Shown here: one piece after another, positions 130-12,137 of the stretch
How positions within the stretch are numbered: the first letter of the stretch is position 1
How the letters are laid out: the number at the start of each line of letters is the position of its first letter
NCBI RefSeq assembly: GCF_042651565.1
Contig: NZ_JBHSDF010000004.1
Strand: one strand, 5' to 3'
Length of the DNA: 24,000 nucleotides
From: Salinispirillum marinum
Lineage (GTDB): Bacteria; Pseudomonadota; Gammaproteobacteria; Pseudomonadales; Natronospirillaceae
The notes under the pieces: model-generated
Databases searched by the model: none
Seen by the model: only the letters and a program-made list of their open reading frames with translations
Told to the model about the DNA's origin: nothing
Position numbers and translations under genes: made by a program

Positions 130-422
130 GCTATGGCCTATTTGTGTTGAGGAGGCGGTGCGCTGAACGGCACACACTGCTCTCTAGTTATTGTTATGGT
201 TGTACCAGTCCCTAGCAATAACTGGGCCGATGCTCTAATCCCGCCTTATTTGCAGGCGTTGCTTCACATTTGTGACCAATGTTCGGCGGATAGTCACCCA
301 AAGTGTAGTCCAAACTGGCGAGTATCCACTCATTTTTGCGAAACTGCCGTCTGACGCTTTTGCATCTCAATCGGGTGTGCTATTTCTACCACCTCGATAG
401 CAAAATTTGGGCAACAGGTATT

Positions 423-2795
423 ATGCGTTTGGTGACAGGCTTACGATGGATAAAGCGACTAACGGTACTCGTCAGTCTTGCCCTGGTTATCGGGCTTGGT
501 TTCTTTTACTGGCAACTGACCGGTAGTCTCGCCACCCTAGACGGCCAGCGCCTAGGGCTGCCACTGCATGCTGACGTGACCATTACCCGCGACCAACAGG
601 GTCTTCCCACCATCACCGCCACCACCCGACCCGACACCGCATTTGGCCTGGGCTATATTCATGCCCAAGATCGGTTTTTCCAGATGGATTTATTACGCCG
701 CAATTCGGCAGGGGAAATGAGTGCACTTTTTGGTGCGGTAGCCCTAGGGTACGACCAACGCATACGCGTGCATCAGTTTCGGCAACGCGGTAATGCGGCC
801 GTAAATGCCCTACCGCAAGCCCATCGTGATGTGTTGCACGCTTACACATTAGGCGTAAATGCAGGCTTGTCGGATTTGCGCAATCCGCCGTTTGAATACA
901 GCTTGCTGGGTGTTGAACCCACTCCATGGGTACCCGCGGATACCATGCTGGTACTGTATTCCATGTACCTGGACTTACAGCCCAACTGGAACGAACAAGA
1001 AGCCTCCCGCGCCGCCATGCTGGACCTGTTGCCCGCTGATTGGTTTAACTTTTTGCAACCCGAGGGTGGCGAGTGGGATGCGCCAATCAGTGGCACGCCG
1101 TATGTCTACGCCGCTGACCTACCTGAAACACCGCTGGCGCAGTTCTCTACCGCTCCAGATCCGCTGGCCTATCGCTATGCTGACCCCTTTGATGTCGGCT
1201 CCAACAGTTGGTCGGTGGCGGGCAGTCGCACCCGCTACCCTGCCGCCATGGTGGCGAACGACATGCACTTGGGATTGCGAGTACCCAATATCTGGTATCG
1301 CGCGACATGGGCCGTACCAGGCCACGACCGCAGCATTTCAGGGGCTACCCTGCCGGGCACTCCTGCCATGGTGGTCGGGTCGAATGAGCATATTGCATGG
1401 GCCTTTACCAACAGCAATGGTGACTACCACGACACCATCCTTTTACAGACCCGCCGGGATGATAGTGAGTATTTAACCCCTGACGGCTGGGTGCCTTTTG
1501 AGATACAGAACGAGGTTATTGCCATAAAGGATGCCGAACCCGTGGTGAGCGCTGTTAAACGCACCCGTTGGGGGCCGGTGATCGGGCGGAATCATAACGG
1601 TCAGTGGATGGTGATGCGCTGGGTCGCGCACGACCCGGCCGGTGCAAACCTGATGTTGATGGAACTGGAAGGTGTTGACAAGGCGGTAGACGCTCTGCCT
1701 ATCGCTGCGCAAACCGGTGTGCCAGGGCAAAATTTTGTGGTGGTGGACAAAGATGGCAACCAAGCGTGGAGCATCATGGGCCGCTTACCGCGCCGTGCGG
1801 GAGAGGGTTTTGATGGCCGCTTGCCGATGGACTGGTCCACTGGCACCCACTTTTGGAACGGCTATTTAACACCAGAGGAATACCCCCGGGTTATCAATCC
1901 AGCCACCGAGCGGATTTGGACCGGCAATGCTCGCATGGTATCCGGCGCAGATCTCGAACGCGTGGGCACCGCAGAATACGCTTTGGGCGCCCGCCAACAA
2001 CAAATACGCAACCGCTTATTGCAGAATCAGGTGTTTACCGAACAGGATTTTTTAGACCTGCAAATGGACAACCAAGCCATCTTCCTTGAGCGCTGGCAAG
2101 CACTGCTCAGTGCTGTTTTGGCACAACCAAATTCAGCGGAGCTGGCCGACGCCCAACAATATGTCGATAACTGGGCGGGGCGTGCGGATAAAAACGATGT
2201 GGGCTATTGGCTGGTCAAGCGCTTCCGCGAGAAAGTCATCAACGCTACCGCTGGCGAAGTCTTTCGTTATTTGGAACAGCAAGCACCCAACGTCTTTGTG
2301 ACCAGCCACATTAACCGCATGGTGGAATACCCGGTGTGGCAACTGGTGACCGAGGAACCGGCTGCACACCTACCTGCCGGTTACACTGACTGGACGACAT
2401 TCCTACGCGCGATAGCCTTCGAGATGGTGCAAGAACTCACCCAGAACGGTGGCGAGCCCTTGGCACAACACACATGGGGCAGGCACAATACGTTGGCCAT
2501 TGAACACCCCCTAGCGAACAACATTCCGCTGCTTGGCCGGTTCCTGAAAATGCCCGCCGAACCCATGCATGGCGACACCTTTATGCCCAATATCCAACGC
2601 CCGGACAATGGTGCATCACAGCGCATGGCGGTAGCACCCGGCCATGAAGAAAACGGAATATTTCACATGGCAACCGGCCAAAGCGCACACCCTCTGTCAC
2701 CGTTTTTTGACCGGGGGCATCGGGATTGGGTAGAAGGCCAGCCCTCACCGTTATTGCCGGGCGAAACGCGTTATAGGTTGAGGCTTTTACCCTAG
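423..2795 (+). CDS. Penicillin acylase family (S45 Ntn hydrolase), probable acyl-homoserine-lactone / N-acyl amide acylase with an N-terminal membrane anchor
   Basis: The 819-aa ORF starts at a TTG. The likely real start is the ATG at 423 (MRLVTGLRWIKRLTVLVSLALVIGLGFF = TM or signal anchor). Family pattern: GLGYIHAQDRFFQMDLLRR in the alpha part, and DVG-SNSWSVAG with the predicted autoprocessing nucleophile Ser at nt 1200-1202. Length and layout are typical of PvdQ/QuiP/HacB-type acylases. Confidence 0.85.
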   Translation: MRLVTGLRWIKRLTVLVSLALVIGLGFFYWQLTGSLATLDGQRLGLPLHADVTITRDQQGLPTITATTRPDTAFGLGYIHAQDRFFQMDLLRRNSAGEMSALFGAVALGYDQRIRVHQFRQRGNAAVNALPQAHRDVLHAYTLGVNAGLSDLRNPPFEYSLLGVEPTPWVPADTMLVLYSMYLDLQPNWNEQEASRAAMLDLLPADWFNFLQPEGGEWDAPISGTPYVYAADLPETPLAQFSTAPDPLAYRYADPFDVGSNSWSVAGSRTRYPAAMVANDMHLGLRVPNIWYRATWAVPGHDRSISGATLPGTPAMVVGSNEHIAWAFTNSNGDYHDTILLQTRRDDSEYLTPDGWVPFEIQNEVIAIKDAEPVVSAVKRTRWGPVIGRNHNGQWMVMRWVAHDPAGANLMLMELEGVDKAVDALPIAAQTGVPGQNFVVVDKDGNQAWSIMGRLPRRAGEGFDGRLPMDWSTGTHFWNGYLTPEEYPRVINPATERIWTGNARMVSGADLERVGTAEYALGARQQQIRNRLLQNQVFTEQDFLDLQMDNQAIFLERWQALLSAVLAQPNSAELADAQQYVDNWAGRADKNDVGYWLVKRFREKVINATAGEVFRYLEQQAPNVFVTSHINRMVEYPVWQLVTEEPAAHLPAGYTDWTTFLRAIAFEMVQELTQNGGEPLAQHTWGRHNTLAIEHPLANNIPLLGRFLKMPAEPMHGDTFMPNIQRPDNGASQRMAVAPGHEENGIFHMATGQSAHPLSPFFDRGHRDWVEGQPSPLLPGETRYRLRLLP

Positions 2796-2849
2796 TCGTT
2801 TCGGATAGATGAGCATTCTCAAGTACTCACCGGCAATGGAGATACAGGA

Positions 2850-3701
2850 ATGGACGAGTTGACGGGCGTAGTCATAGCTGTAGTACTGGGCATTTTGGCG
2901 TCCAGTTGCCTGCATTTGTCCCAAGGTTTTATGCGCCTTGGTATTGTTCGGATGCGCGCCTCAACGCCAGTGCCCGGCGGGCGTGTTTTTTACGTCATTG
3001 GCCTGCTGTTGAATTTCAGCGCACCCTTTTGGGTGATGGTCGCTAATGTGTTCGCACCTACTCTTTGGTTTACTTCCATGTTCGCCACAGGGCTGCTGAC
3101 TTTAATGGTGTTTTCTCACTATTATCTCAACGACCCCATTACCTGGCCAAAAACCTTTGGCGTGAGCGCCATATTGCTTGCCACTGGCCTGCTGGCGGTG
3201 ACGGGACTTTCCGCCATACAAGACTTCAAACCACCGCTTGTTCTGTTGCTGTCGGTTTCGCTAGCTTGGGTATTAGCCATGCCTACCTTAGCCATCCTGT
3301 GCCGACACGCGCGGCTGCCGATTCAGGAAATGCTGTTTGGTACAGCCGCAGGCGGCTTTTTTGCGTTGGATGCCCTGTGGAAGAGCGCGGCGCAACAGAT
3401 GGGGGGCGACACAACTCAGTTGCTGCCTGCAACGCCTCTGGGATGGCTCATTCTCATGGCCAGCTTCGGCGGTGCTGCAGGTGCCTTCGCCATGATGCAA
3501 TGGTCTTATCTGCGTTTCTGTCGAGCGTCTGCCGTGGTGGTCAGTTACAACATGATCTATGTTCTGCTGCCGCTGAGCTTGCTCGCTTTGATGGGAATTT
3601 GGGAGGCGTTCACCTTGCCTATGTTAGCGGCCATCGTGTTGCTGCTCGGTGGCGCGGCTTTGATTCAATTTAAGGGGCATGCTGACGTAATAAATCCGTG
3701 A
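2850..3701 (+). CDS. Polytopic inner-membrane protein of unknown function (about 9-10 predicted TM helices; DMT/NIPA-like at best)
   Basis: 283-aa ORF that is almost entirely hydrophobic helices. GGAG lies 8 nt upstream of the ATG. It sits 54 nt after the acylase stop on the same strand. No diagnostic motif was recognised. Confidence 0.6.
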   Translation: MDELTGVVIAVVLGILASSCLHLSQGFMRLGIVRMRASTPVPGGRVFYVIGLLLNFSAPFWVMVANVFAPTLWFTSMFATGLLTLMVFSHYYLNDPITWPKTFGVSAILLATGLLAVTGLSAIQDFKPPLVLLLSVSLAWVLAMPTLAILCRHARLPIQEMLFGTAAGGFFALDALWKSAAQQMGGDTTQLLPATPLGWLILMASFGGAAGAFAMMQWSYLRFCRASAVVVSYNMIYVLLPLSLLALMGIWEAFTLPMLAAIVLLLGGAALIQFKGHADVINP

Positions 3702-5481
3702 TCACGCCAGAGCTAGCGGGTTTACTGTGCCAGTAGCCTTGTCCATGGTCACTCCCTAATTTACGCAGCTGCTGAAACTGGTCGTCGGTTTCAATACCTT
3801 CGGTGATCACCTTAAGATTCAGGCGGTGTGCTAGGTCGATGATGGTTTGCATCATGAGTACATCCTGCTCGCCGTGCGCCAGATTCAATACGAAGCTGCG
3901 ATCAATCTTCAATTGTGTGATCGGCATACGGCGCAGATAGCTTAGGCTGGAGTAGCCTGTGCCAAAGTCATCAATGGCAAGCCGAATTCCGTGCTGACGC
4001 AAGGCCTGCATCACTTCGATACAGGCATCAATATCCCCCAAAAACGCCGTTTCTGTAATCTCCAATTCCAATGCCGATGGCGGCATCTGATGGGCTTCCA
4101 ACGCATGAATAACATCGGCCACAAAATCGGCACGCAGAAATTCCGTGGCTGACACATTAACCGCCATGGTGAAGGCGTCGTTGATCAACCCTGCTTGATA
4201 CCATTGCCGCCATTGCGCACAGGAGGTTTGCAATGCCCAGTCACCCAAGGCTTCAATTATGCCGGTGCGTTCGGCCATGGGTATGAAGATATCCGGAGGA
4301 ATGAAAATACCGTTGTGCTGCCAACGCATGAGTGCTTCTACGCCGATGGGCTGCCCGTCACTTAGCCGAATTTGCGGTTGGAAAAACATCGCTAGCTCTT
4401 GCTTATCTAAGGCGCTGCGCAAATGCTCTTCCATTTCAAGCCCGCGCTTTACTTCTTCGCCGAGATAACGGTCGTACCAGACCAACTCTTGGTCTTCCGA
4501 TTGTTGGGCGTGATGCAGCGCGGTGTTGGCGTCATCTATCAGCTCATCAACCGTCATGCCTTTGGTGAAATGCACCAGACCCATACGTGCGTTGAGCTGG
4601 AACTCCCGTTCACCGACAAATACGGGCTTACTGACTGCTTGCACGAACTCTTCAGCCGACTTTTTTTCGCAGGCCTCGTCGTCGGCAAGAATGAGTACGC
4701 CAAAGATATAGCCGTCAAAACGATAGACTCGCCGCTGGCAGGTCGGGTCACTGTCTTCGTACTCGTTTTGGAAGGTGGTAGCCAAGCGGCATATCACTTG
4801 GTCGGCCACTTGGTAGCCGTCACGCACAGCGCTGGTGGCTAGACCACGCACCCAACTGAGCCCTAAGGTAACGCGTTGACCGGAGGCAATCTTCTGCTTT
4901 AAGTCTAGTTCGAGCGCACGCCGATTGGGCAGTTGCGTAATGCTGTCGTGGCTGGCTTGCCACTCCAATAAACACTTGGACTCTTCGCGCTCGGTCACGT
5001 TCTCTACATAGATATGTGCGCGGCCAAGTTCAGCCACCACGTGTACCCGGTATTCGTAAATTTCGAGGTCAACACGATGCTGCCATAGGTCATTGTTTAT
5101 GTGACGCTGTTCAAGGTGATGCAAACGCGTAACGTAGTCATTAGGCAACAAGTTTTCCAGCGCGCCAGAGGATTCCGGCAATTGAGCCAGCAAAGCCTTG
5201 GCAGCCGGATTAATGTACATCACACAGCCATCGTGCAGAGACACCGAGAACACCGGATTGGGGTTAAAATGCGGAAAGACTTCATCACCGCTGTTGCGCA
5301 CGGCGCTGTACGTGGAAACCAAAAAGGGCACACAGAAATTGAGCAGCACCATTCCCCACCTTATGTCTTCGTCTCCCAGAATGGCACCGCCTTGGTTGAT
5401 CGCGTTCAGTACCAGGCCGACGACCGCACTGATTTTGACGGCATTGATGAGCATGGGCTTGGTGGGCAAACTGTGCAACAT
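3670..5481 (-). CDS. c-di-GMP phosphodiesterase: N-terminal 2-TM module (NrtS-like), PAS-like region, degenerate GGDEF, intact EAL domain
   Basis: EAL-domain motifs are present: GVEALMRW, ELEITE, DDFGTGYSSLSYL, KIDRSF, EGIET, GQGYW. The GGDEF domain opens with DSITQLPNRRAL, but the active-site position reads RFDGYIF instead of GG(D/E)EF. AGGAAG lies 6 nt upstream of the ATG at 5479-5481. Confidence 0.85.
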   Translation of the reverse strand: MLHSLPTKPMLINAVKISAVVGLVLNAINQGGAILGDEDIRWGMVLLNFCVPFLVSTYSAVRNSGDEVFPHFNPNPVFSVSLHDGCVMYINPAAKALLAQLPESSGALENLLPNDYVTRLHHLEQRHINNDLWQHRVDLEIYEYRVHVVAELGRAHIYVENVTEREESKCLLEWQASHDSITQLPNRRALELDLKQKIASGQRVTLGLSWVRGLATSAVRDGYQVADQVICRLATTFQNEYEDSDPTCQRRVYRFDGYIFGVLILADDEACEKKSAEEFVQAVSKPVFVGEREFQLNARMGLVHFTKGMTVDELIDDANTALHHAQQSEDQELVWYDRYLGEEVKRGLEMEEHLRSALDKQELAMFFQPQIRLSDGQPIGVEALMRWQHNGIFIPPDIFIPMAERTGIIEALGDWALQTSCAQWRQWYQAGLINDAFTMAVNVSATEFLRADFVADVIHALEAHQMPPSALELEITETAFLGDIDACIEVMQALRQHGIRLAIDDFGTGYSSLSYLRRMPITQLKIDRSFVLNLAHGEQDVLMMQTIIDLAHRLNLKVITEGIETDDQFQQLRKLGSDHGQGYWHSKPASSGVITDLLRQHAP

Positions 5482-5501
5482 ACAATACTTCCTGTCCGGC
5501 G

Positions 5502-6425
5502 TTATTGAACGTCAATGAACCTTGCTTTCACCTTAGCATTGATTTCCGCTACCGGCACAATAATCCCCAGTTCAAGAGCGTTGCCAAAATCGGCATCGAA
5601 TACGGTTTCGCCGCACCAAATGCCGGTCGACAAGGACATATAAGACTGCAACACGGGTGGGATGCTCATGTCGTGCGGCAACAGTGCATCACGCAGTTGG
5701 CGGATACGCTCGTCGGCGCTGTTGTTCTCGCCAAAGGCCGCCGCGGCGTGCGTGGGTTCATATCGGCAGGTTTGGCGCGCCACTAAATAGGGTTCCGGCG
5801 GAGCATAATGTGCCTGCATGGTACTGACTAATAGGTCGCGGCCGGTGTAGTTCAGGGTTTGGTACAACGACACATTGCCAAAGAAATACTGCACCTCAGG
5901 GTGTTTGCGCAGCAATGCGCCCAAGCCTACCCACGTTGCAAAGAAGCCCAACGCGCCCTTTTTGGCGGCGCGGTTGACCACCGAGCGGCCCAGTTCAATG
6001 GCATAGGGCAGGATGTTGCGTTGGAACGAAAGAGAATAATCAAACAAGCCAAAAGTTCGCAAACACTCTGGACCAAACACGGCCACCTTAGCACCCAACT
6101 GATAGCGGTACATGGCGACCATTTCTTGATATTCGGGGTCCCAGGCCACCAACTGCGAATAGCACTGTTCGCCGTAGTCACGGTGGTCGAGGTCCAGCTC
6201 TTCGCCTCGTCCGGCACCGACGGCGCGGAAACCGGCTTCGCGCAATCGCCCTATTTCTTCCATCGCGGCTGGGCATTCGTCGCCAGTGAAACTGTAGATA
6301 TTCAGGCCACGAAACTGTGCCAGCGGTGCCAACGCGGCGAGTTCTTGCGCCACGCTGTTCTTGATGACGGCGGAGATGGCAATTGGGTCTGCTTGAGCAA
6401 GAGTCGATTGATGCGCGAGTGTCAT
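5502..6425 (-). CDS. GNAT-fold N-acyltransferase of the OlsB / putative hemolysin (COG3176, Acetyltransf_5) type; predicted lyso-aminolipid (N-acyl amino acid) synthase
   Basis: The pattern EIGRLREAGFRAVGAGRGEELDLDHRDY...LVAWDPEYQEMVAMYRYQ...ELGRSVV is typical of OlsB-like N-acyltransferases. The real start is the ATG at 6423-6425, with GGAG 7 nt upstream, and it overlaps the upstream stop as ATGA. The 53-aa extension in the track ORF (to 6584) lies inside the upstream gene. Confidence 0.75.
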   Translation of the reverse strand: MTLAHQSTLAQADPIAISAVIKNSVAQELAALAPLAQFRGLNIYSFTGDECPAAMEEIGRLREAGFRAVGAGRGEELDLDHRDYGEQCYSQLVAWDPEYQEMVAMYRYQLGAKVAVFGPECLRTFGLFDYSLSFQRNILPYAIELGRSVVNRAAKKGALGFFATWVGLGALLRKHPEVQYFFGNVSLYQTLNYTGRDLLVSTMQAHYAPPEPYLVARQTCRYEPTHAAAAFGENNSADERIRQLRDALLPHDMSIPPVLQSYMSLSTGIWCGETVFDADFGNALELGIIVPVAEINAKVKARFIDVQ

Positions 6426-8062
6426 GATGAAGTCTCCTTCAAGACAAGAGAGGACGTAGCCTGAGCGAGCGCCGGATGCGGACGCGCCAGCCGCCCATAT
6501 TGTGCACGGACAATCGCCATGCGCTGTTGATCGTTCGGGGCGAGCTGTTCGAGATCCTCGGCACGGATGGTTTCCCCCACGCACACATCGAAGGTGCGGG
6601 TAGCGGGTTTCAACAGCTCGCGCGGCAGCAAGGCCATTTCAAGGTTCAGCGCGGCATTGAAGCGCTGGCGCAAAGCCGCGACGCCATGAAACAACCATGA
6701 ATTCGTGCCTTCTAGGTGGATAGGCACCAATGAGCGACCATAGCGTCGGGCCAGAGTCACAGGCATGCTGTGCCATTCAAAGTCGGTCAGTTGGCCCTGT
6801 TGTTTGCGCGCGGTGCGCCCGGCCGGGAACACTAAAATGGCGGCGTCGGTGGCGAAGGCGGCATGCAGATTGCGCACCGACTGGCGCGAAGAACGATATC
6901 GATCCACCGGCACGACCAAGGGTTGCAGGGGCGGAATCAAGGTCAGCAAATCCGTCACCACCACCTTCACCTCCGGATAGTAACTTTGCAACCACGCGAG
7001 CAGAATCAGGCCATCTAGGCCACCGGTTGGGTGATTCGCCACAAATACCGGACGTGCTGCGACCGTGGGTAGCGTTGCGCCATTAAGCACCTGTGCGCTA
7101 ACGCCCAAACGCTGCAACACTTGCGCGGGAAAACGACGCGCATTGGTGTCCGAAAGGGCCATTAACGCTTGGTTGAATTGGCGCACTTGCGTTATCCACA
7201 ATAACAACCGCAACGGCCAACCGCGCAAGCGCTGCCAAAGCGTTGGATTTTTGTCCTGTAACAACCGTTCAACGTCTACCGGCGGTGCAATGGGTGGTAC
7301 AACGGGCGCACTGTGCGGCAGGGGCTGCCAATGGGTTTTTAACGTCTGTATGCTCGTCGGCTCGGCTCCCGGTACAGGTGTACCCGGCCAATATTCCATG
7401 CGCGTTAAACCCGGCTGTACCTGAATGCGTGTTAGGCTGACGGTGGCGCGGTCGCGCCGGTTCATCGCAACCGATGCCCATGGCATCCACCCGTGGCGTT
7501 GGCAATGCGCTTGTAGCTGGTGTTCAGGCGTCCAAATTCGCCAACCTTGGAGTTCGGTTGCCCAGCGGGAGAAAAAATACCGCCGCAGCAGGGGAATCCA
7601 CTGCGGCAGTAATGAGGAAGTACTGAACGGTGAGCTGGGAGCTACCGTCTCTGACCATGCCTGTGCCGACCAACGCCAGCATAGCGGTTCTTGGGTTTGC
7701 CAAAAGACAAAAACAACGCAAGGCGCGAAGTCCATTGGAGCGGTATTCTGCAACAACGAACGCACCGCCATCGGCGTGGCACAAGCACTCAGGGAGCGCA
7801 CCAAGCGGCCACGACTCTGGGTAGCCATGGTAGTTCGGTGTTGTTGTTCAGCGGCATAGTCGTTCAGCAAGCAAATCGTTAGCCCTTGGTCGTTGGTGGC
7901 TAGCCAGAAACCATCACCTTCAGGGTCATGCGGAGCCAGTATCTCGCGCCCGCCTTCATTGAACACCATCGGCGGCTCGGCTGCGATGCGACTGCGCCGT
8001 TCATCCCGGCTGAACACAATGTTCAATGTGCCCTGATGATGTTGCCAACTTAGGGTGCACAT
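6422..8062 (-). CDS. Two-domain fusion: NRDE/TANGO2-family (DUF833-like) N-terminal domain, Pro-rich linker, and PlsC/OlsA-type lysolipid O-acyltransferase domain
   Basis: N-terminus: MCTLSW (Met-Cys start), SRDE at the NRDE-motif position, GFWLATNDQGL, SRGRLV. Linker: PGTPVPGAEPTS...PLPHSAPVVPPIAPP (about nt 7277-7387). C-terminal domain: FVANHPTGGLDG (His codon at 7031-7033) and VFPAGRTAR (Phe codon at 6827-6829), the acyltransferase catalytic and binding boxes. Confidence 0.7.
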   Translation of the reverse strand: MCTLSWQHHQGTLNIVFSRDERRSRIAAEPPMVFNEGGREILAPHDPEGDGFWLATNDQGLTICLLNDYAAEQQHRTTMATQSRGRLVRSLSACATPMAVRSLLQNTAPMDFAPCVVFVFWQTQEPLCWRWSAQAWSETVAPSSPFSTSSLLPQWIPLLRRYFFSRWATELQGWRIWTPEHQLQAHCQRHGWMPWASVAMNRRDRATVSLTRIQVQPGLTRMEYWPGTPVPGAEPTSIQTLKTHWQPLPHSAPVVPPIAPPVDVERLLQDKNPTLWQRLRGWPLRLLLWITQVRQFNQALMALSDTNARRFPAQVLQRLGVSAQVLNGATLPTVAARPVFVANHPTGGLDGLILLAWLQSYYPEVKVVVTDLLTLIPPLQPLVVPVDRYRSSRQSVRNLHAAFATDAAILVFPAGRTARKQQGQLTDFEWHSMPVTLARRYGRSLVPIHLEGTNSWLFHGVAALRQRFNAALNLEMALLPRELLKPATRTFDVCVGETIRAEDLEQLAPNDQQRMAIVRAQYGRLARPHPALAQATSSLVLKETSS

Positions 8063-8580
8063 AATGACTGCTCCACACCCTGCGACGTTTCATAGCGGCG
8101 TGTGGATGGGTTAACGCCGAAACCCGGTGGCATGGCGCCGCCCTGTATCACCACCAGCATTTCCACCAAAGCAAAGTGATGAATGCTGTGTTGCGTGAGA
8201 AATACCAGCTCGCGGGCTAATGTCGTTGTGACCGGTGCGTTATCATCGTCGGTGCAGTAGTGGAGGATCAACGCTCGGTCACCGTGCTTTATATGTGTTG
8301 CTAGCTCAGTCTGGACGCACTGCAACAACATCAACGCATACGATGAATCGACCTCGACACGCGGGTCACGCTGACGATGTTCGTAGTCGATGTCGGTGCC
8401 ACTTGATAAGGCGACAGACAAGGCGAGATAGTGATCCAGGATATGCCGCACGTGGCGGCCGGGCGTTTGCCCATGTGGTAGCAATTCACAATGGCCGCTG
8501 TACTCCGTGTGGTTTACATGCGCCAGCCAGTTCTCCAAGCGTTGCATGACACCGACGGCTTCGTGCCACAGCAGGCTCAT
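8050..8580 (-). CDS. DinB-superfamily (DinB_2-like) putative metal-dependent enzyme
   Basis: His-rich motifs are spaced as in the DinB four-helix-bundle family: RHILDHYLAL near the N-terminus and LTQHSIHHFALV near the C-terminus. The preferred start is the ATG at 8578-8580, with AGGAAA 4 nt upstream. The 3' end overlaps the next gene by 13 nt. Confidence 0.62.
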   Translation of the reverse strand: MSLLWHEAVGVMQRLENWLAHVNHTEYSGHCELLPHGQTPGRHVRHILDHYLALSVALSSGTDIDYEHRQRDPRVEVDSSYALMLLQCVQTELATHIKHGDRALILHYCTDDDNAPVTTTLARELVFLTQHSIHHFALVEMLVVIQGGAMPPGFGVNPSTRRYETSQGVEQSLCAP

Positions 8581-8609
8581 GTCGTTTCCTATCCGTTGAT
8601 CACCTACCA

Positions 8610-9437
8610 TCAATTTTCCCTCGGCATATTGGCGACACTGCGGCTATTGACATCGTTGAGCGCCCAGTCGTAATCAAGAAAACGAATAGGCACCTGCTCA
8701 GTCGCCAAGCGCTCCCGTTGATTGTCCGGCACCCCCAGCTCGTCGGCATATAACGCTAAGAATTCGCCCAATCGGTTAGTGCCTTGCCAACCGGAAGCGA
8801 AATCATCCCGATACCAACGAAATATCGAAGACACTTCAACGCCTTCACCCGCCCAGCGGTTGCGTGATCTATCGCTGAGAAAAGCCCGCGTAGCCTGATC
8901 CAACTGTTGCTCTAGCGTGTCCGCTTCAAAAGCTTCGGTCAGCAAAGCCGGGCAACCGATACTGGCGCAGTTCACCGCAAAATGGATACGCGGTTCGTTA
9001 TAGCGCCCCGAGCCACGGATCATTTCATGTTCTATTTCGTCCAAACTGCGCTCTTGACCCAAAAGAGGAATGAATTCGCGTTTCCACGGTGAACGAAAGA
9101 GTGAGCCCAGATCACGAATAGAATCAAGGTCAGGATAAGCGGTGAGTATCAACTCCACCGTCCACGCGTTATAGGCGTTGATCAAAAAAGCGAGCTGGGT
9201 ATCCGACGACCATTGCTCAAACTCAGGCTCTGTCACCGCCGACAGTGCATCCAGATAGTCCGTAAGCTCGGCCCGCTGGTCTGCGAAACCCGCATAGTCC
9301 ACGGCGGTGGCTCGTCCCTCATTGAACGGCTGCACATGGCGCTGCAACAATTCTGTCCACGCTCTGTGCTCCATGGCCGACACCGAACCACCGAACAGCC
9401 CCCCGAGCAGGACACCTAGCCATACTATTCTTCGCAT
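8610..9437 (-). CDS. Secreted/periplasmic DUF547-domain protein
   Basis: Matches the DUF547 pattern: AFLINAYNAWTVELIL, SLDEIEHEMIRG, EPRIHFAVNCASIGCPALL. From the ATG at 9435-9437 the N-terminus is a signal peptide (MRRIVWLGVLLGGLFGGSVSA|ME). The upstream ATG at 9500 is possible but lacks an SD and would bury the signal peptide. Confidence 0.7.
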   Translation of the reverse strand: MRRIVWLGVLLGGLFGGSVSAMEHRAWTELLQRHVQPFNEGRATAVDYAGFADQRAELTDYLDALSAVTEPEFEQWSSDTQLAFLINAYNAWTVELILTAYPDLDSIRDLGSLFRSPWKREFIPLLGQERSLDEIEHEMIRGSGRYNEPRIHFAVNCASIGCPALLTEAFEADTLEQQLDQATRAFLSDRSRNRWAGEGVEVSSIFRWYRDDFASGWQGTNRLGEFLALYADELGVPDNQRERLATEQVPIRFLDYDWALNDVNSRSVANMPREN

Positions 9438-9657
9438 CAATTCTTCTACCCTTTGCCTACTGATTACCTGCTTGGATATCACCCGTGTAAAAAAGTTCAT
9501 TCTGTCTGCTTTGCCTGTCGCGGAATGTTCACAAGATGGTTTAGGCTTTAACTGTTATACTTTGTAACCGCAGGTAACGATTAGGGAAATTCCGACGTAT
9601 TCTCCCGCCCGCGCTTATTTTTGTTTTTCTGGTTGCGTCAACAGTAGAGGTTTGCCT

Positions 9658-11013
9658 ATGGCATATACGGTCATTGCCGAAGAACTCAGAGAAGCCTTAG
9701 CCAAGGACGACCTCCAGACCATGGAGCAACTCGTTGCCGATATGCAACCGGCTGACCTCGCGGAATTCATTCAGGAACACCCGGTCGACATCAACCTGAA
9801 GTTGTTGTCTTGCTTGCCGATTAAACAGCGCGCGGAAACCTTTGGTTATTTCTCCGAAAATGATCAGCGCGAACTGGCCGAACACATGGATGAGTCCACC
9901 TTGGCTAACCTGTTCATCCACATGAACTCGGATGAACGGGCCGACTTGTTCAACCTGCTCGAAGAAGAACTTAAAGCCGATTTGATGCGTCGCCTAGCGC
10001 GTAATGAGCGGGAGGACTTGCGCCGTCTGTCCAGTTATGAAGAAGGCACCGCGGGGTCTATTATGACCAGCGACTATGTGGCTGTGCCTGCCCAGTCCAG
10101 CGTTGCGCAAGCCTTTGATATTGTGCGTTCTACCGCACCCGACGCGGAAACCATTTACGACATCTACAGTATCGACCATATGGGTCGTTTGATGGGTGCG
10201 ACGTCGCTGCGCGAAATGATTCTGGCGCGCACCACGGCGCGGATGGACGCGCTGATGACCACGGAGCTGATCAGCGCTACCGTGGATACCCCGCAGGAAG
10301 AAGTCGCCAAACTGATTTCACGTTACGATCTCTTGGCGTTGCCGATTATTGATAATGACGCGCGGCTAGTAGGCATTGTGACCTACGATGACGCGATGGA
10401 CGTAGCAGAACAAGAAGCCACGGAAGACATCCACAAAGGGGCTTCAGTGGGCCGTTTGGATGACGGTTTTGGCCGTGCGCGCTTGCGGGATCTCTATCGG
10501 ACGCGGATTGTTTGGCTGGTCTTGCTGGTGTTTGGCAACATTTTCTCCGGCATGGGCATAGCGCTGTTTGAAACCACCATTGCGGCGCATGTTGCTTTGG
10601 TGTTTTTTCTCCCCCTATTGATTGGCAGTGGCGGTAATGCGGGTGCGCAGGCATCCACGCTGATGGTGCGGGGTATTGCTACGGGCGATGTAGGTGTTTC
10701 GGATTGGGCACGTTTGCTGGGCCGGGAGCTGCTTGTGGCCGGTGCACTAGGGCTAACCATGGCACTGGCTGTATCACCCATTGGGTTCTGGCGCGGGGGC
10801 GAAGAAATTGCGTTTATTGTGGGTACCGCCATGATCAGTGTGGTGGTGTTGGGTAGCCTGATCGGTATTTGCTTACCTTTTATTCTCAATCATCTCGGTT
10901 GGGACCCGGCAACGGCGAGCGCTCCGCTGGTAACCACCTTGATTGATGCGGCCGGGGTCATTCTGTATTTCAGTATTGCTGCGGCGGTATTGGATCTGCC
11001 TGGCCTGTTTTAA
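9658..11013 (+). CDS. mgtE: Magnesium transporter MgtE
   Basis: N-terminal MgtE domain, a CBS pair, and a 5-TM C-terminal domain with the characteristic FLPLLIGSGGNAGAQASTLMVRGIATGD. The ATG at 9658 is preceded by AGAGG with 7-nt spacing. The track ORF starts two codons earlier at a TTG. Confidence 0.9.
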   Translation: MAYTVIAEELREALAKDDLQTMEQLVADMQPADLAEFIQEHPVDINLKLLSCLPIKQRAETFGYFSENDQRELAEHMDESTLANLFIHMNSDERADLFNLLEEELKADLMRRLARNEREDLRRLSSYEEGTAGSIMTSDYVAVPAQSSVAQAFDIVRSTAPDAETIYDIYSIDHMGRLMGATSLREMILARTTARMDALMTTELISATVDTPQEEVAKLISRYDLLALPIIDNDARLVGIVTYDDAMDVAEQEATEDIHKGASVGRLDDGFGRARLRDLYRTRIVWLVLLVFGNIFSGMGIALFETTIAAHVALVFFLPLLIGSGGNAGAQASTLMVRGIATGDVGVSDWARLLGRELLVAGALGLTMALAVSPIGFWRGGEEIAFIVGTAMISVVVLGSLIGICLPFILNHLGWDPATASAPLVTTLIDAAGVILYFSIAAAVLDLPGLF

Positions 11014-11057
11014 CGTATCGTCGCTTGTTATTTTTCTTCTGATAGGACTGATTGTGT

Positions 11058-12137
11058 ATGGCTTTTACTGGAGTCCGTAACTATTCGCACGCCCAACCGG
11101 ATAAGACCGGTATTTTAATCACCAACTTAGGCACGCCCGATGCGCCCGAAACTGGTGCAGTGCGGCGTTACCTACGCGAGTTTTTGTCTGACCACCGGGT
11201 AGTGGAAATCCCCAAGGCCATTTGGTGGTTCATTCTGAACGGCATCATTCTGTTGCTACGGCCAGCACGTTCAGCGAAGAACTATCGTACCGTTTGGACA
11301 GAGCGCGGTTCACCGTTGCTTTACCATACGGCAGATCAATGCGCTGCCATTCGCCAGTACATGCAGGGCCGTTATGGTGATGATGTGGTGGTGGAATTTG
11401 CCATGCGCTATGGCAACCCGGCCATTACCGATGTACTGCAAAAGATGCAAGACCAAGGTGTACGCCGTTTGCTGGTATTGCCCATGTATCCTCAGTACTC
11501 AGCCACAACAACCGCCTCAACCTTCGACGCCATTGCGCACGATTTCGCGCAGCGGCGCTGGATTCCCGAACTGCGTTTTATTAATCACTACCATGATTTC
11601 CCGCCCTATATCGAAGCCATGGCAGAGCATATTGAAGCGTTTCAAAAAATCAACGGCAGCCCGGAAAAGCTGGTTTTGTCATACCATGGCATACCCAAAC
11701 GCAACCTATTGGAAGGCGACCCCTACCATTGTGAATGCTACAAAACGTCGCGTTTACTGGCCGAACGCCTTGGCCTTCCACGTGAGCAAGTACTAACTAC
11801 GTTTCAGTCCCGATTCGGTAAACAGGAATGGCTTAAACCTTATACGGATGCCACGATGAAGCAATTAGGGGCGGAAGGCGTGGGCTCGCTTCAGGTATTC
11901 TGCCCGGGGTTTCCAGCCGACTGTTTAGAAACCATTGAAGAAATAGCGGAAGAAAACAAACATTACTTTGAGGAAGCCGGCGGGAAGAACTTTGCCTATA
12001 TTCCGGCGCTGAATGCAGAACCGCACCACATTCATGCCCTGACGGCCCTATTGGAGCAACACCTGAAAGGTTGGCACCCGTTGGGTAATAGTGACAAGGA
12101 GTTAACCGTGGCAGAAGCCAACGCAAAAGGCGCTTAG
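11058..12137 (+). CDS. hemH: Ferrochelatase
   Basis: GILITNLGTPDAPETGAVRRYLREFLSDHRVVEIP, LVLPMYPQYSATTT and LVLSYHGIP are classic HemH motifs. The gene lies 44 nt downstream of mgtE on the same strand. Confidence 0.92.
   Translation: MAFTGVRNYSHAQPDKTGILITNLGTPDAPETGAVRRYLREFLSDHRVVEIPKAIWWFILNGIILLLRPARSAKNYRTVWTERGSPLLYHTADQCAAIRQYMQGRYGDDVVVEFAMRYGNPAITDVLQKMQDQGVRRLLVLPMYPQYSATTTASTFDAIAHDFAQRRWIPELRFINHYHDFPPYIEAMAEHIEAFQKINGSPEKLVLSYHGIPKRNLLEGDPYHCECYKTSRLLAERLGLPREQVLTTFQSRFGKQEWLKPYTDATMKQLGAEGVGSLQVFCPGFPADCLETIEEIAEENKHYFEEAGGKNFAYIPALNAEPHHIHALTALLEQHLKGWHPLGNSDKELTVAEANAKGA

Follow-up and report, generated by a model that had tools for sequence, protein, structure and literature searches.

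Our analysis concerns a 24,000-nt stretch of DNA from Salinispirillum marinum, a soda-lake-type bacterium (contig NZ_JBHSDF010000004.1, assembly GCF_042651565.1), referred to in its full length as the window, and a compact gene cluster on its minus strand. We consider this cluster likely to be an aminolipid biosynthesis operon with a three-gene core, in which lipid acyltransferases are joined by an accessory pair composed of a DinB-fold protein and a domain of the NRDE/TANGO2 family; from its sequence, the cluster very probably makes an amino-acid-containing membrane lipid. The conserved unit is three genes, encoding the DinB-like protein, a fusion of the NRDE domain to a GlsA-like O-acyltransferase, and a GNAT-type N-acyltransferase, and the order DinB-like then NRDE is a deeper invariant than this triad. 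The core features are:

8050..8580, minus strand: DinB-fold protein, 176 aa (186 aa from the ATG at 8610), first gene of the core triad; from fold and orthologues
6422..8062, minus strand: whole NRDE-GlsA fusion gene, 546 aa; from the list of open reading frames (ORFs)
7328..8062, minus strand: NRDE/TANGO2-like cysteine N-terminal-nucleophile (Cys-Ntn) domain, about residues 1-245 of the 546-aa fusion; from Pfam, alignment and fold
6527..7279, minus strand: GlsA-like lyso-aminolipid O-acyltransferase domain, residues 262-512 of the fusion; from NCBIfam, Pfam and fold
5502..6425, minus strand: GlsB/OlsF-C-like amino-acid N-acyltransferase (GNAT), 307 aa; from NCBIfam GlsB and tree

The first-pass annotation had read the GNAT and the PlsC-type domain as the N- and O-acyltransferases of an aminolipid pathway, and family models agree with it. 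The best full-length match of the GNAT is NCBIfam GlsB (207.3 bits; equivalog cut-off 300), followed by the C-terminal half of OlsF (153.5 bits; cut-off for OlsF, NF052615, 620), and that of the fusion protein is GlsA (185.6 bits; equivalog cut-off 260), followed by the N-terminal half of OlsF (144.9 bits; cut-off 620). The GNAT also matches Acetyltransf_5 in Pfam and is the sole gene of its kind in the genome. Residues 267-509 of the fusion match Acyltransf_2 (PF19576; 120.6 bits), with a further match to Acyltransferase (PF01553; 25.2 bits, cut-off 23); the GlsA-like domain of the AlphaFold2 (AF2) model is matched by Foldseek to glycerol-3-phosphate acyltransferase (GPAT) and PlsC, and the residues typical of the lysophospholipid acyltransferase (LPLAT)/PlsC family, N343-H344-P345-x-G347...D350-G351 and F412-P413-A-G415-R, are invariant or nearly so across 28 fusion proteins. 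No window protein matched the OlsB or OlsA models (NF052554/5, NF052552/3) at E<=0.01; matches to these models do occur in a variant of the module in genome G037.

A maximum-likelihood tree places the module GNATs in a single clade (100/99), separate from the OlsF C-terminal domains and sister to Bacteroidota GlsB-like proteins, with joint support of 100/99 and a stem branch of 1.82. OlsF proteins linked to the DinB/NRDE pair form a subclade of their own (99/95). The module GNATs are not nested within the Bacteroidota GlsB clade, and neither equivalog score nor placement makes the window enzymes GlsB and GlsA proper. The GlsB-like outgroups were obtained from a search of genome contigs with the fusion alignment, in which Bacteroidota GlsA homologues dominated, the C-terminal domain alone matching and no fusion loci being recovered. 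A grouping of the GNAT with non-lipid acetyltransferases, named beforehand as the outcome that would overturn the assignment, was not seen; the tree puts it with lipid N-acyltransferases.

The triad is part of a row of five collinear minus-strand genes, flanked by a DUF547 gene upstream and a gene for an EAL-domain protein downstream, and the ORF list and direct reading of the sequence bear out both this arrangement and all four junctions as first described. The DUF547 gene ends in TGA at 8612-8610, 29 nt before the DinB-like ATG at 8580, which has GGAA upstream; an alternative ATG at 8610 would share 1 nt with that stop (TGATG), and the same-genus DinB-like orthologues, 186 aa long in the protein database, would fit an equivalent upstream start. 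The DinB-like TAA (8052-8050) overlaps the fusion-gene ATG (8062) by 13 nt, the stop of the fusion gene and the start of the GNAT gene share the ATGA at 6425-6422, with GAAGGAGA upstream, and the GNAT TAA (5504-5502) is separated by 20 nt from the EAL-gene ATG (5481), upstream of which lies a Shine-Dalgarno sequence, AGGAAG. The tight spacing is no chance feature: the DinB-like/NRDE junction overlaps or nearly abuts in every related locus examined.

The NRDE-acyltransferase fusion is represented by only about 35 proteins among the database matches, whose named sources are Natronospirillum, Alkalimonas, Alishewanella, Cyclonatronaceae and a Spirochaetaceae metagenome-assembled genome (MAG); several of these taxa are soda-lake haloalkaliphiles. 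The collinear triad of DinB-like, fusion and GNAT genes was found in Alkalimonas, a Cyclonatronaceae MAG, the Spirochaetaceae MAG, two genomes of the same genus (G001 and G002), a genome of another genus of the same family (G019) and metagenome contigs. Of the neighborhood conservation proposed at first, the triad is what relatives keep; the five-gene order is not kept.

The pair reaches further than the triad. A DinB-like homologue lies directly upstream of the NRDE gene or domain at 25 of the 27 loci of the module NRDE type, and this recurrence at related loci confirms the NRDE domain and the DinB-fold protein as the genuine conserved extras they had been taken for; DinB-like or aminolipid neighbors were present at none of 30 canonical and none of 8 intermediate NRDE loci. 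The pair adjoins three types of synthase, GlsBA-like, OlsF and OlsBA. Its arrangements include DinB-like, NRDE, OlsF-like (G040); OlsF-like, DinB-like, NRDE (L107, G208 and G233, and convergent in G225); DinB-like, NRDE, YHS, OlsF-like (G667, G749, G581 and G531); and DinB-like, NRDE, OlsB-like, OlsA-like, YHS (G037 and G390). Secreted YHS-domain proteins are present at 10 of 28 loci checked (9 when the query source, L101, is excluded), and a divergent YHS copy lies beside the fusion-type module of G019. The NRDE N-terminus at pair loci reads MCT[LV][ST]W, or MCSVTW in Vibrio cholerae. In one sister genus it is the DinB-like domain that is fused to the GlsA-like domain (P0029, P0030 and L099), the NRDE part being lost or truncated: the fusion at L099 (genome G015, 9394-10854) has no NRDE domain, and in G020, the sister genome, about 50 residues are missing from the start of the NRDE part.

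Other gene contexts at these loci deserve mention. The Alkalimonas amylolytica locus (L002, 5367-9473) is a coupled operon of an HD-GYP-type phosphodiesterase, an 82-aa NrtS-like ORF, a DinB_2 protein, the fusion and the GNAT; thioredoxin and DsbD genes lie near this module, and recur at L105 (thioredoxin and DsbD) and L003 (thioredoxin only). At L003, the Cyclonatronaceae MAG, positions 1-1556 carry ergothioneine-like genes (Methyltransf_33 and FGE-sulfatase, EgtD/EgtB-type) with the thioredoxin, within 7 kb of the module. A DinB-like domain is found in EgtB as well.

The name DinB-like, given in the first pass, stands for the fold, by way of orthologues and the AF2 model, and not for a significant Pfam match of the window protein itself, which scores 15.8 bits against DinB_2 (PF12867; E 0.019, cut-off 24.8). 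Its orthologues at L002 and L101 pass the cut-off, with 31.5 and 30.3 bits. With the AF2 model (predicted local distance difference test, pLDDT, 90.3), Foldseek returns a probability of 1.00 to more than 20 DinB-family chains at template-modeling scores of 0.5-0.66, with DinB/YfiT proteins, mycothiol S-transferase, BstA and MDMPI at the top. Across the family H43, R45, H46, Y66, R69, R71, R123 and E124 are invariant and H50, H131, H134 and H135 are at least 90% conserved; the protein is predicted to bind metal via this histidine cluster. The family numbers 1,988 clusters at 50% identity at E<=1e-30, or about 2,000-3,900 clusters in public data. Within a phylum-level sample of Pseudomonadota it is carried by 15 of 401 genomes, and in the 13 carriers examined it adjoins an aminolipid synthase in nine, has only an NRDE gene nearby in one and stands alone in three. 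The DinB-like/NRDE pair together with an aminolipid synthase is found in about 3% of the sampled Pseudomonadota (at least 9 of the 401 genomes).

The NRDE domain falls in the TANGO2/NRDE family by Pfam (TANGO2, PF05742; 31.3 bits, cut-off 22.6, with residues 1-90 aligned to profile positions 1-93 of 257), as annotated at first, but its own motif letters are SRDE, within a family consensus of F-(N/S)-R-D-E; the fusion begins MCTLSW. Free-standing orthologues of the module type score 27-57 bits against TANGO2. Residues C2, T3, W6, R19, D20, D46, G51, N57, T207 and S209 are invariant in the 28 fusion proteins, and the joint invariance of C2, T3, W6, R19 and D20 and of the NHP..G and FPAG boxes indicates that both domains are under selection. 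Neither the NRDE domain nor the DinB-like profile gave a meaningful sequence match to PDB chains, and fold comparison alone works. In the AF2 model of the fusion (pLDDT 87.9, predicted template-modeling score, pTM, 0.89) the NRDE domain's top fold neighbor among PDB entries by Foldseek is acyl-CoA:isopenicillin N acyltransferase (E 5e-7); further neighbors are the structural-genomics protein CV2077, bile salt hydrolases, penicillin V acylase, acid ceramidase and NAAA, and the named enzymes among them are Cys-Ntn enzymes acting on N-acyl amide bonds. The predicted structure of the domain is thus of the Ntn-hydrolase-like alpha-beta-beta-alpha kind, and its RD(E) motif would correspond in position to Arg18/Asp21 of bile salt hydrolases.

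Of 300 Gammaproteobacteria, 80 have canonical PF05742 proteins, most of which score above 150 bits, and the window's own genome encodes one on another contig (G000:C3:1317323-1318042; 207.8 bits). The module NRDE domain is therefore a second, divergent paralogue, and we rejected its classification as a typical canonical NRDE protein in view of this separate copy and of the lack of partners at canonical loci. At the same-genus locus L096 (G002, 9717-10973) an in-frame deletion of about residues 192-305 leaves a fusion of 418 aa (P0002); it takes out the linker together with the last third of the NRDE domain, and the DUF547 gene is also missing there.

The first-pass annotation regarded the NRDE domain and the DinB-fold protein as lying outside the described Ols and Gls systems. 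Both are in fact part of a published V. cholerae cluster, VCA0649-VCA0646, although the paper describing it neither names nor characterizes them: VCA0646 is the last gene of a putative four-gene operon whose first three members are uncharacterized and unnamed (2025, PMC12186959). VCA0646, an OlsF, is sufficient for ornithine lipid formation in E. coli; low salinity induces it, and it is needed for ornithine lipid at low salinity and not at low phosphate and has its own promoter (PMC12186959). With this gene, at least one DinB/NRDE-linked synthase is proven to make an aminolipid and responds to ionic conditions; since VCA0646 alone makes ornithine lipid in E. coli, the DinB-NRDE pair is accessory and dispensable for core synthesis. 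None of the module loci gathered before a Vibrio genus-wide search matches the primers published for V. cholerae; in that search the VCA0646 primer matched exactly in two genomes, with four or five published primers matching per locus, and the VCA0649 fusion primer lies 51 bp into the DinB-like gene, in agreement with the paper. These V. cholerae-type loci encode a 180-aa DinB-like protein, a 248-aa NRDE protein (MCSVTW; TANGO2 27.4 bits), a secreted YHS protein and OlsF. At one of them (L207, 3094-4230) a 378-aa ORF with no Pfam match stands directly upstream of the DinB-like gene. Two recent aminolipid reviews make no mention of DinB, TANGO2 or NRDE, and TANGO2 is named in none of the papers listed for ornithine or glycine lipids; the unannotated V. 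cholerae four-gene cluster is the only published trace of the DinB-NRDE-aminolipid association that we found.

These data suggest a model for the cluster. By homology with GlsB/GlsA and OlsF, the GNAT would make an N-(3-hydroxyacyl) amino acid, and the GlsA-like domain would then esterify its 3-hydroxyl with a second fatty acid to give an acyloxyacyl aminolipid. The NRDE domain could, through Cys2, bind or accept a fatty acyl group supplied by an acyl-thioester of the acyl-CoA type and then present or exchange it on the lipid, and the metal-binding DinB-fold partner might assist thiol or thioester chemistry. Since both members of the pair occur fused to an O-acyltransferase (NRDE-GlsA here, DinB-GlsA in the sister genus), a role in O-acylation or acyl exchange is the one we prefer. 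We put forward only tentatively that the pair serves this step, with NRDE handling the acyl thioester via Cys2 and the DinB-fold protein assisting, on the basis of the fusions, the predicted folds and the literature on TANGO2, whose human form binds C16/C18 acyl-CoA through the NRDE motif (PMC11867700). A more speculative proposal, which we regard as rather doubtful, is that DinB and NRDE form an unrecognized aminolipid enzyme couple in which a TANGO2-family member would act as a catalytic Cys-Ntn transacylase, taking the acyl group from acyl-CoA to Cys2 and then installing or exchanging it on the N-acyl amino-acid lipid; the occurrence of the fused form in taxa named as soda-lake haloalkaliphiles, taken with the low-salinity-induced Vibrio cluster, would then point to membrane remodeling under ionic stress.

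Several observations weigh against this interpretation. Human TANGO2 is reported to be without acyltransferase activity. All NCBIfam scores fall below the equivalog cut-offs, so that the head group cannot be assigned, and co-transcription of the cluster is deduced from gene spacing. The loci behind the count of 25 in 27 are not all phylogenetically independent (the window, G001 and G002; L097 and L102; L207 and L208). DinB-like homologues stand alone in Halomonas-type genomes and in G685, G652 and G686. Two loci of the fusion type, L103 and L104, lack a DinB-like gene and carry NRDE domains that differ at positions nearly invariant elsewhere; together with the genus that lacks NRDE, they imply that each accessory part is individually dispensable.

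The same structural comparisons admit a catabolic or editing function, which we think unlikely, in which a Cys-Ntn amidase would remove the amide-linked fatty acid of aminolipids or lyso-aminolipids for turnover or recycling under changing conditions, with the DinB-fold protein as its metallo-hydrolase partner. In its favor are the amide hydrolases of N-acyl lipids or conjugates among the NRDE fold neighbors (bile salt hydrolase, penicillin V acylase, acid ceramidase and NAAA), the annotation of several DinB/YfiT structures with a putative metal-dependent hydrolase function, and the dispensability of the pair for synthesis by VCA0646. The best structural match, however, is a transferase that uses acyl-CoA, and a degradative domain fused to the O-acyltransferase of a synthase would set up a futile cycle, whereas fusions usually join consecutive or cooperating steps.

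The preferred reading, a three-gene core with an accessory pair, leaves the genes on either side outside the conserved unit. The features around the core are:

9501..9651, no strand: intergenic region of 151 nt, common to the cluster and the divergent mgtE, presumed promoter region; sequence read
8610..9500, minus strand: DUF547 protein with a signal-peptide-like N-terminus; Pfam DUF547 (PF04784), 93.7 bits, cut-off 27
3670..5481, minus strand: NrtS-like-GGDEF*-EAL cyclic di-GMP (c-di-GMP) phosphodiesterase, 603 aa; Pfam, NCBIfam and motifs
within it: NrtS-like two-transmembrane module at about 5311-5442, degenerate GGDEF domain at 4495-4956 (motif DGYIF), intact EAL domain at 3718-4428
2850..3701, plus strand: rare polytopic membrane protein, 283 aa, convergent with the EAL gene; no Pfam match

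A fuller version of the pathway, extending the first-pass annotation, would place all five genes in one dedicated operon, with the DUF547 protein in export or remodeling and the EAL protein as an integral regulator. All four junctions are tight or overlapping, and none of them holds a scored terminator-like site, the scored sites all falling within coding sequence. The DUF547 gene adjoins the module in G001 with the same 29-nt gap, and in the spirochaete (L004) it lies near the module, two genes away; G019 and Alkalimonas both have an NrtS-like module next to the lipid-gene module or within it. Conservation nevertheless makes the five-gene operon quite unlikely. DUF547 is missing in G002, and no homologue was found at the remaining module loci, so that we rejected it as a core component and the secreted protein loses the place in the pathway it had been given; it may still be a periplasmic partner. 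In translated comparison with G001 and G002, synteny extends rightwards from the GNAT across mgtE and hemH and further, and breaks off at about 5492, exactly at the GNAT/EAL junction, which marks the DUF547 and GGDEF*-EAL genes as lineage-specific neighbors. With DUF547 in one of the two same-genus genomes and the EAL gene at neither same-genus locus, the five-gene arrangement does not survive as a conserved operon. The 54%-identical EAL-protein homologue that abuts the module in G019 is convergent, and a weak promoter-like site (5587-5560) precedes the EAL gene in the window, in a scan in which the count of such sites was below the shuffled expectation. A further DUF547 homologue (30% identity) is convergent with a canonical NRDE gene at L141 (G160, 555-2226), one of the 30 canonical loci.

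The promoter and terminator scan, in which site counts were not clearly above those of shuffled sequence, gave nothing significant at the four junctions and scored no sigma-70-like site in 9501-9651. A Pho box (CTGTCAT-N4-CTGTCAT, up to 3 mismatches) had no match anywhere in the window, and phosphate control is without sequence support. Within the fusion gene, at 7578-7611 (minus strand; codons about 151-165, in the NRDE domain), the coding strand holds a strong terminator-like hairpin, with 8 G-C pairs in a stem of 14 pairs and TTTTTT next to it on the 3' side; it may be a coincidence or an internal attenuator.

The EAL domain itself is intact (Pfam 241.8 bits), with the EAL, ELEITE, DDFGTG, KIDRSF and QG motifs all present in the translation. 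In place of the PAS domain first assigned to this protein, which scores only E 0.059, the N-terminus holds a membrane module of two helices that resembles NrtS (NF038050; 28.1 bits, cut-off 25). A hidden Markov model search of all module loci found this module in the window, G019 and Alkalimonas only, and it is thus not a universal component; in Alkalimonas it is a separate 82-aa ORF, translationally coupled between the HD-GYP phosphodiesterase and DinB-like genes. The presence of two unrelated types of c-di-GMP phosphodiesterase with the same rare NrtS-like module beside lipid genes suggests a regulatory coupling, outside the conserved operon.

The membrane-protein gene at 2850-3701 and the EAL gene overlap by 32 nt at their 3' ends (3670-3701). 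No homologue of this protein was found in 300 other Gammaproteobacteria; among 41 relatives it is present in 4 of 6 module carriers and 0 of 35 non-carriers (Fisher p 1.5e-4, without phylogenetic correction). The spirochaete MAG has a 44%-identical copy about 5 kb from its module, beside a DedA gene and near DUF547, and in G015 and G020 the protein is encoded about 2.3 kb from an NrtS-like ORF and a GGDEF-EAL gene. One homologue only gives an EamA or drug/metabolite transporter (DMT)-like hint (E 1.6e-4). The membrane protein is a candidate accessory of the module; it and the EAL protein are tied to the module loosely but non-randomly, which hints at c-di-GMP-linked control and at a function in transport or flipping. 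Further upstream, at 336-2795 (plus strand) and 54 nt from the membrane-protein gene, lies a penicillin-amidase/acyl-homoserine lactone (AHL)-acylase-like Ntn hydrolase (Pfam, 483 bits). A hydrolase of N-acyl amides thus adjoins a cluster for an N-acyl amino-acid lipid, and no homologue of it was found at the module loci searched.

The co-occurrence of this rare DMT-like membrane protein with the module could also be taken to mean that it exports the product, which would then be a secreted or signaling N-acyl amino acid or a lipoamino-acid biosurfactant. GNATs of the Acetyltransf_5/FeeM type include N-acyl amino acid synthases, and an OlsB-like relative matches FeeM. We hold this to be very unlikely: the O-acyltransferase domain is always present, which points to a diacylated membrane-forming lipid, and the relative that has been studied makes the membrane lipid ornithine lipid.

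On the far side of the cluster, at 9652-12137 (plus strand), mgtE and hemH (ferrochelatase, 11052-12137) are divergent from it and keep this synteny in no genomes but G001 and G002; that hemH lies close to a TANGO2-like gene is probably a coincidence. A heme-trafficking role for the NRDE domain, as for S. oneidensis HtpA, with its place among lipid genes and near hemH unrelated to acyl chemistry, is extremely improbable: bacterial TANGO2 homologues have been proposed as heme-trafficking proteins (PMC10470608) and hemH is 1.5 kb away, but the heme role is contested (PMC12782551), the hemH adjacency is confined to this genus, the genome has a separate canonical NRDE gene, and the only constant neighbors of the module NRDE are the DinB-like gene and aminolipid acyltransferases.

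The reading of the cluster as an aminolipid operon with an accessory DinB-NRDE pair bears on two fields. Aminolipid synthesis (OlsBA, OlsF, GlsBA and OlsH) is considered well mapped, yet the DinB-like/NRDE pair accompanies its synthases, and the cluster could give a new aminolipid species or a tailoring or remodeling reaction, possibly tied to salinity or alkalinity stress. TANGO2 is a human disease gene of disputed function, with heme trafficking, acyl-CoA binding and lipid homeostasis all proposed; the natural fusion of NRDE to an O-acyltransferase provides independent comparative evidence for an acyl-lipid role of the family, and the fusion cluster offers a simple bacterial system in which to test it. 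If the transacylase proposal were true, the TANGO2 family would have its first defined biochemical reaction, and the human disease protein could be modeled in bacteria.

A comparison with known systems highlights what the window shares with each and where it departs. The glycine lipid synthases GlsB and GlsA of Bacteroides (Lynch et al., 2019, as cited in PMC12971839) are the best family-level match for both window enzymes, and there too the N- and O-acyltransferases are separate genes. The window scores nevertheless remain below both cut-offs, at 207 (of 300) and 186 (of 260), and the two clades are parted by a long stem (1.82); the Bacteroidota GlsA homologues retrieved align to the acyltransferase domain only, from about residue 236. 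OlsF, the bifunctional ornithine/lysine lipid synthase of Serratia proteamaculans (NF052615), is matched in its two halves in the same order, with the O-acyltransferase first. It is a single polypeptide, whereas its window counterparts are two separate genes, at 145 and 153 bits (cut-off 620), with an extra NRDE domain.

Human TANGO2 and S. oneidensis HtpA share with the module NRDE domain the family PF05742, the N-terminal Met-Cys and the (N/S)RDE motif. The module domains differ as a divergent subfamily, at 27-57 bits against more than 150 for most canonical members, and in having a DinB-like partner at 25 of 27 loci. The Cys-Ntn enzymes (isopenicillin N acyltransferase, bile salt hydrolase and penicillin V acylase, acid ceramidase and NAAA) are predicted fold neighbors, and here too the cysteine in the nucleophile position comes directly after the initiator methionine; their solved structures have no detectable sequence similarity to the NRDE domain, whose catalysis is putative. 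With the DinB/YfiT thiol transferases and hydrolases (mycothiol S-transferase, BstA and MDMPI) the window protein has in common a four-helix bundle and conserved histidines. It differs from DinB/YfiT structures in template-modeling scores of no more than about 0.55-0.66, an identity below 20%, an extra beta-hairpin (residues 103-120) and a C-terminal helix.

The closest counterpart of the whole arrangement is VCA0649-VCA0646 of V. cholerae, which has the same order of DinB-like then NRDE, with an overlapping junction, upstream of a synthase; both are aminolipid loci, and by this order the window belongs to the same type of cluster. In the Vibrio cluster the NRDE protein is free-standing, a YHS gene intervenes and the synthase is the bifunctional OlsF. 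The window, in contrast, has a split GlsA-/GlsB-like synthase whose GNAT belongs to a clade distinct from that of OlsF, and it has no YHS gene. What is new in the window is this split synthase with NRDE fused to its O-acyltransferase, the DUF547 gene in the leading position, and the EAL gene and the rare membrane protein alongside.

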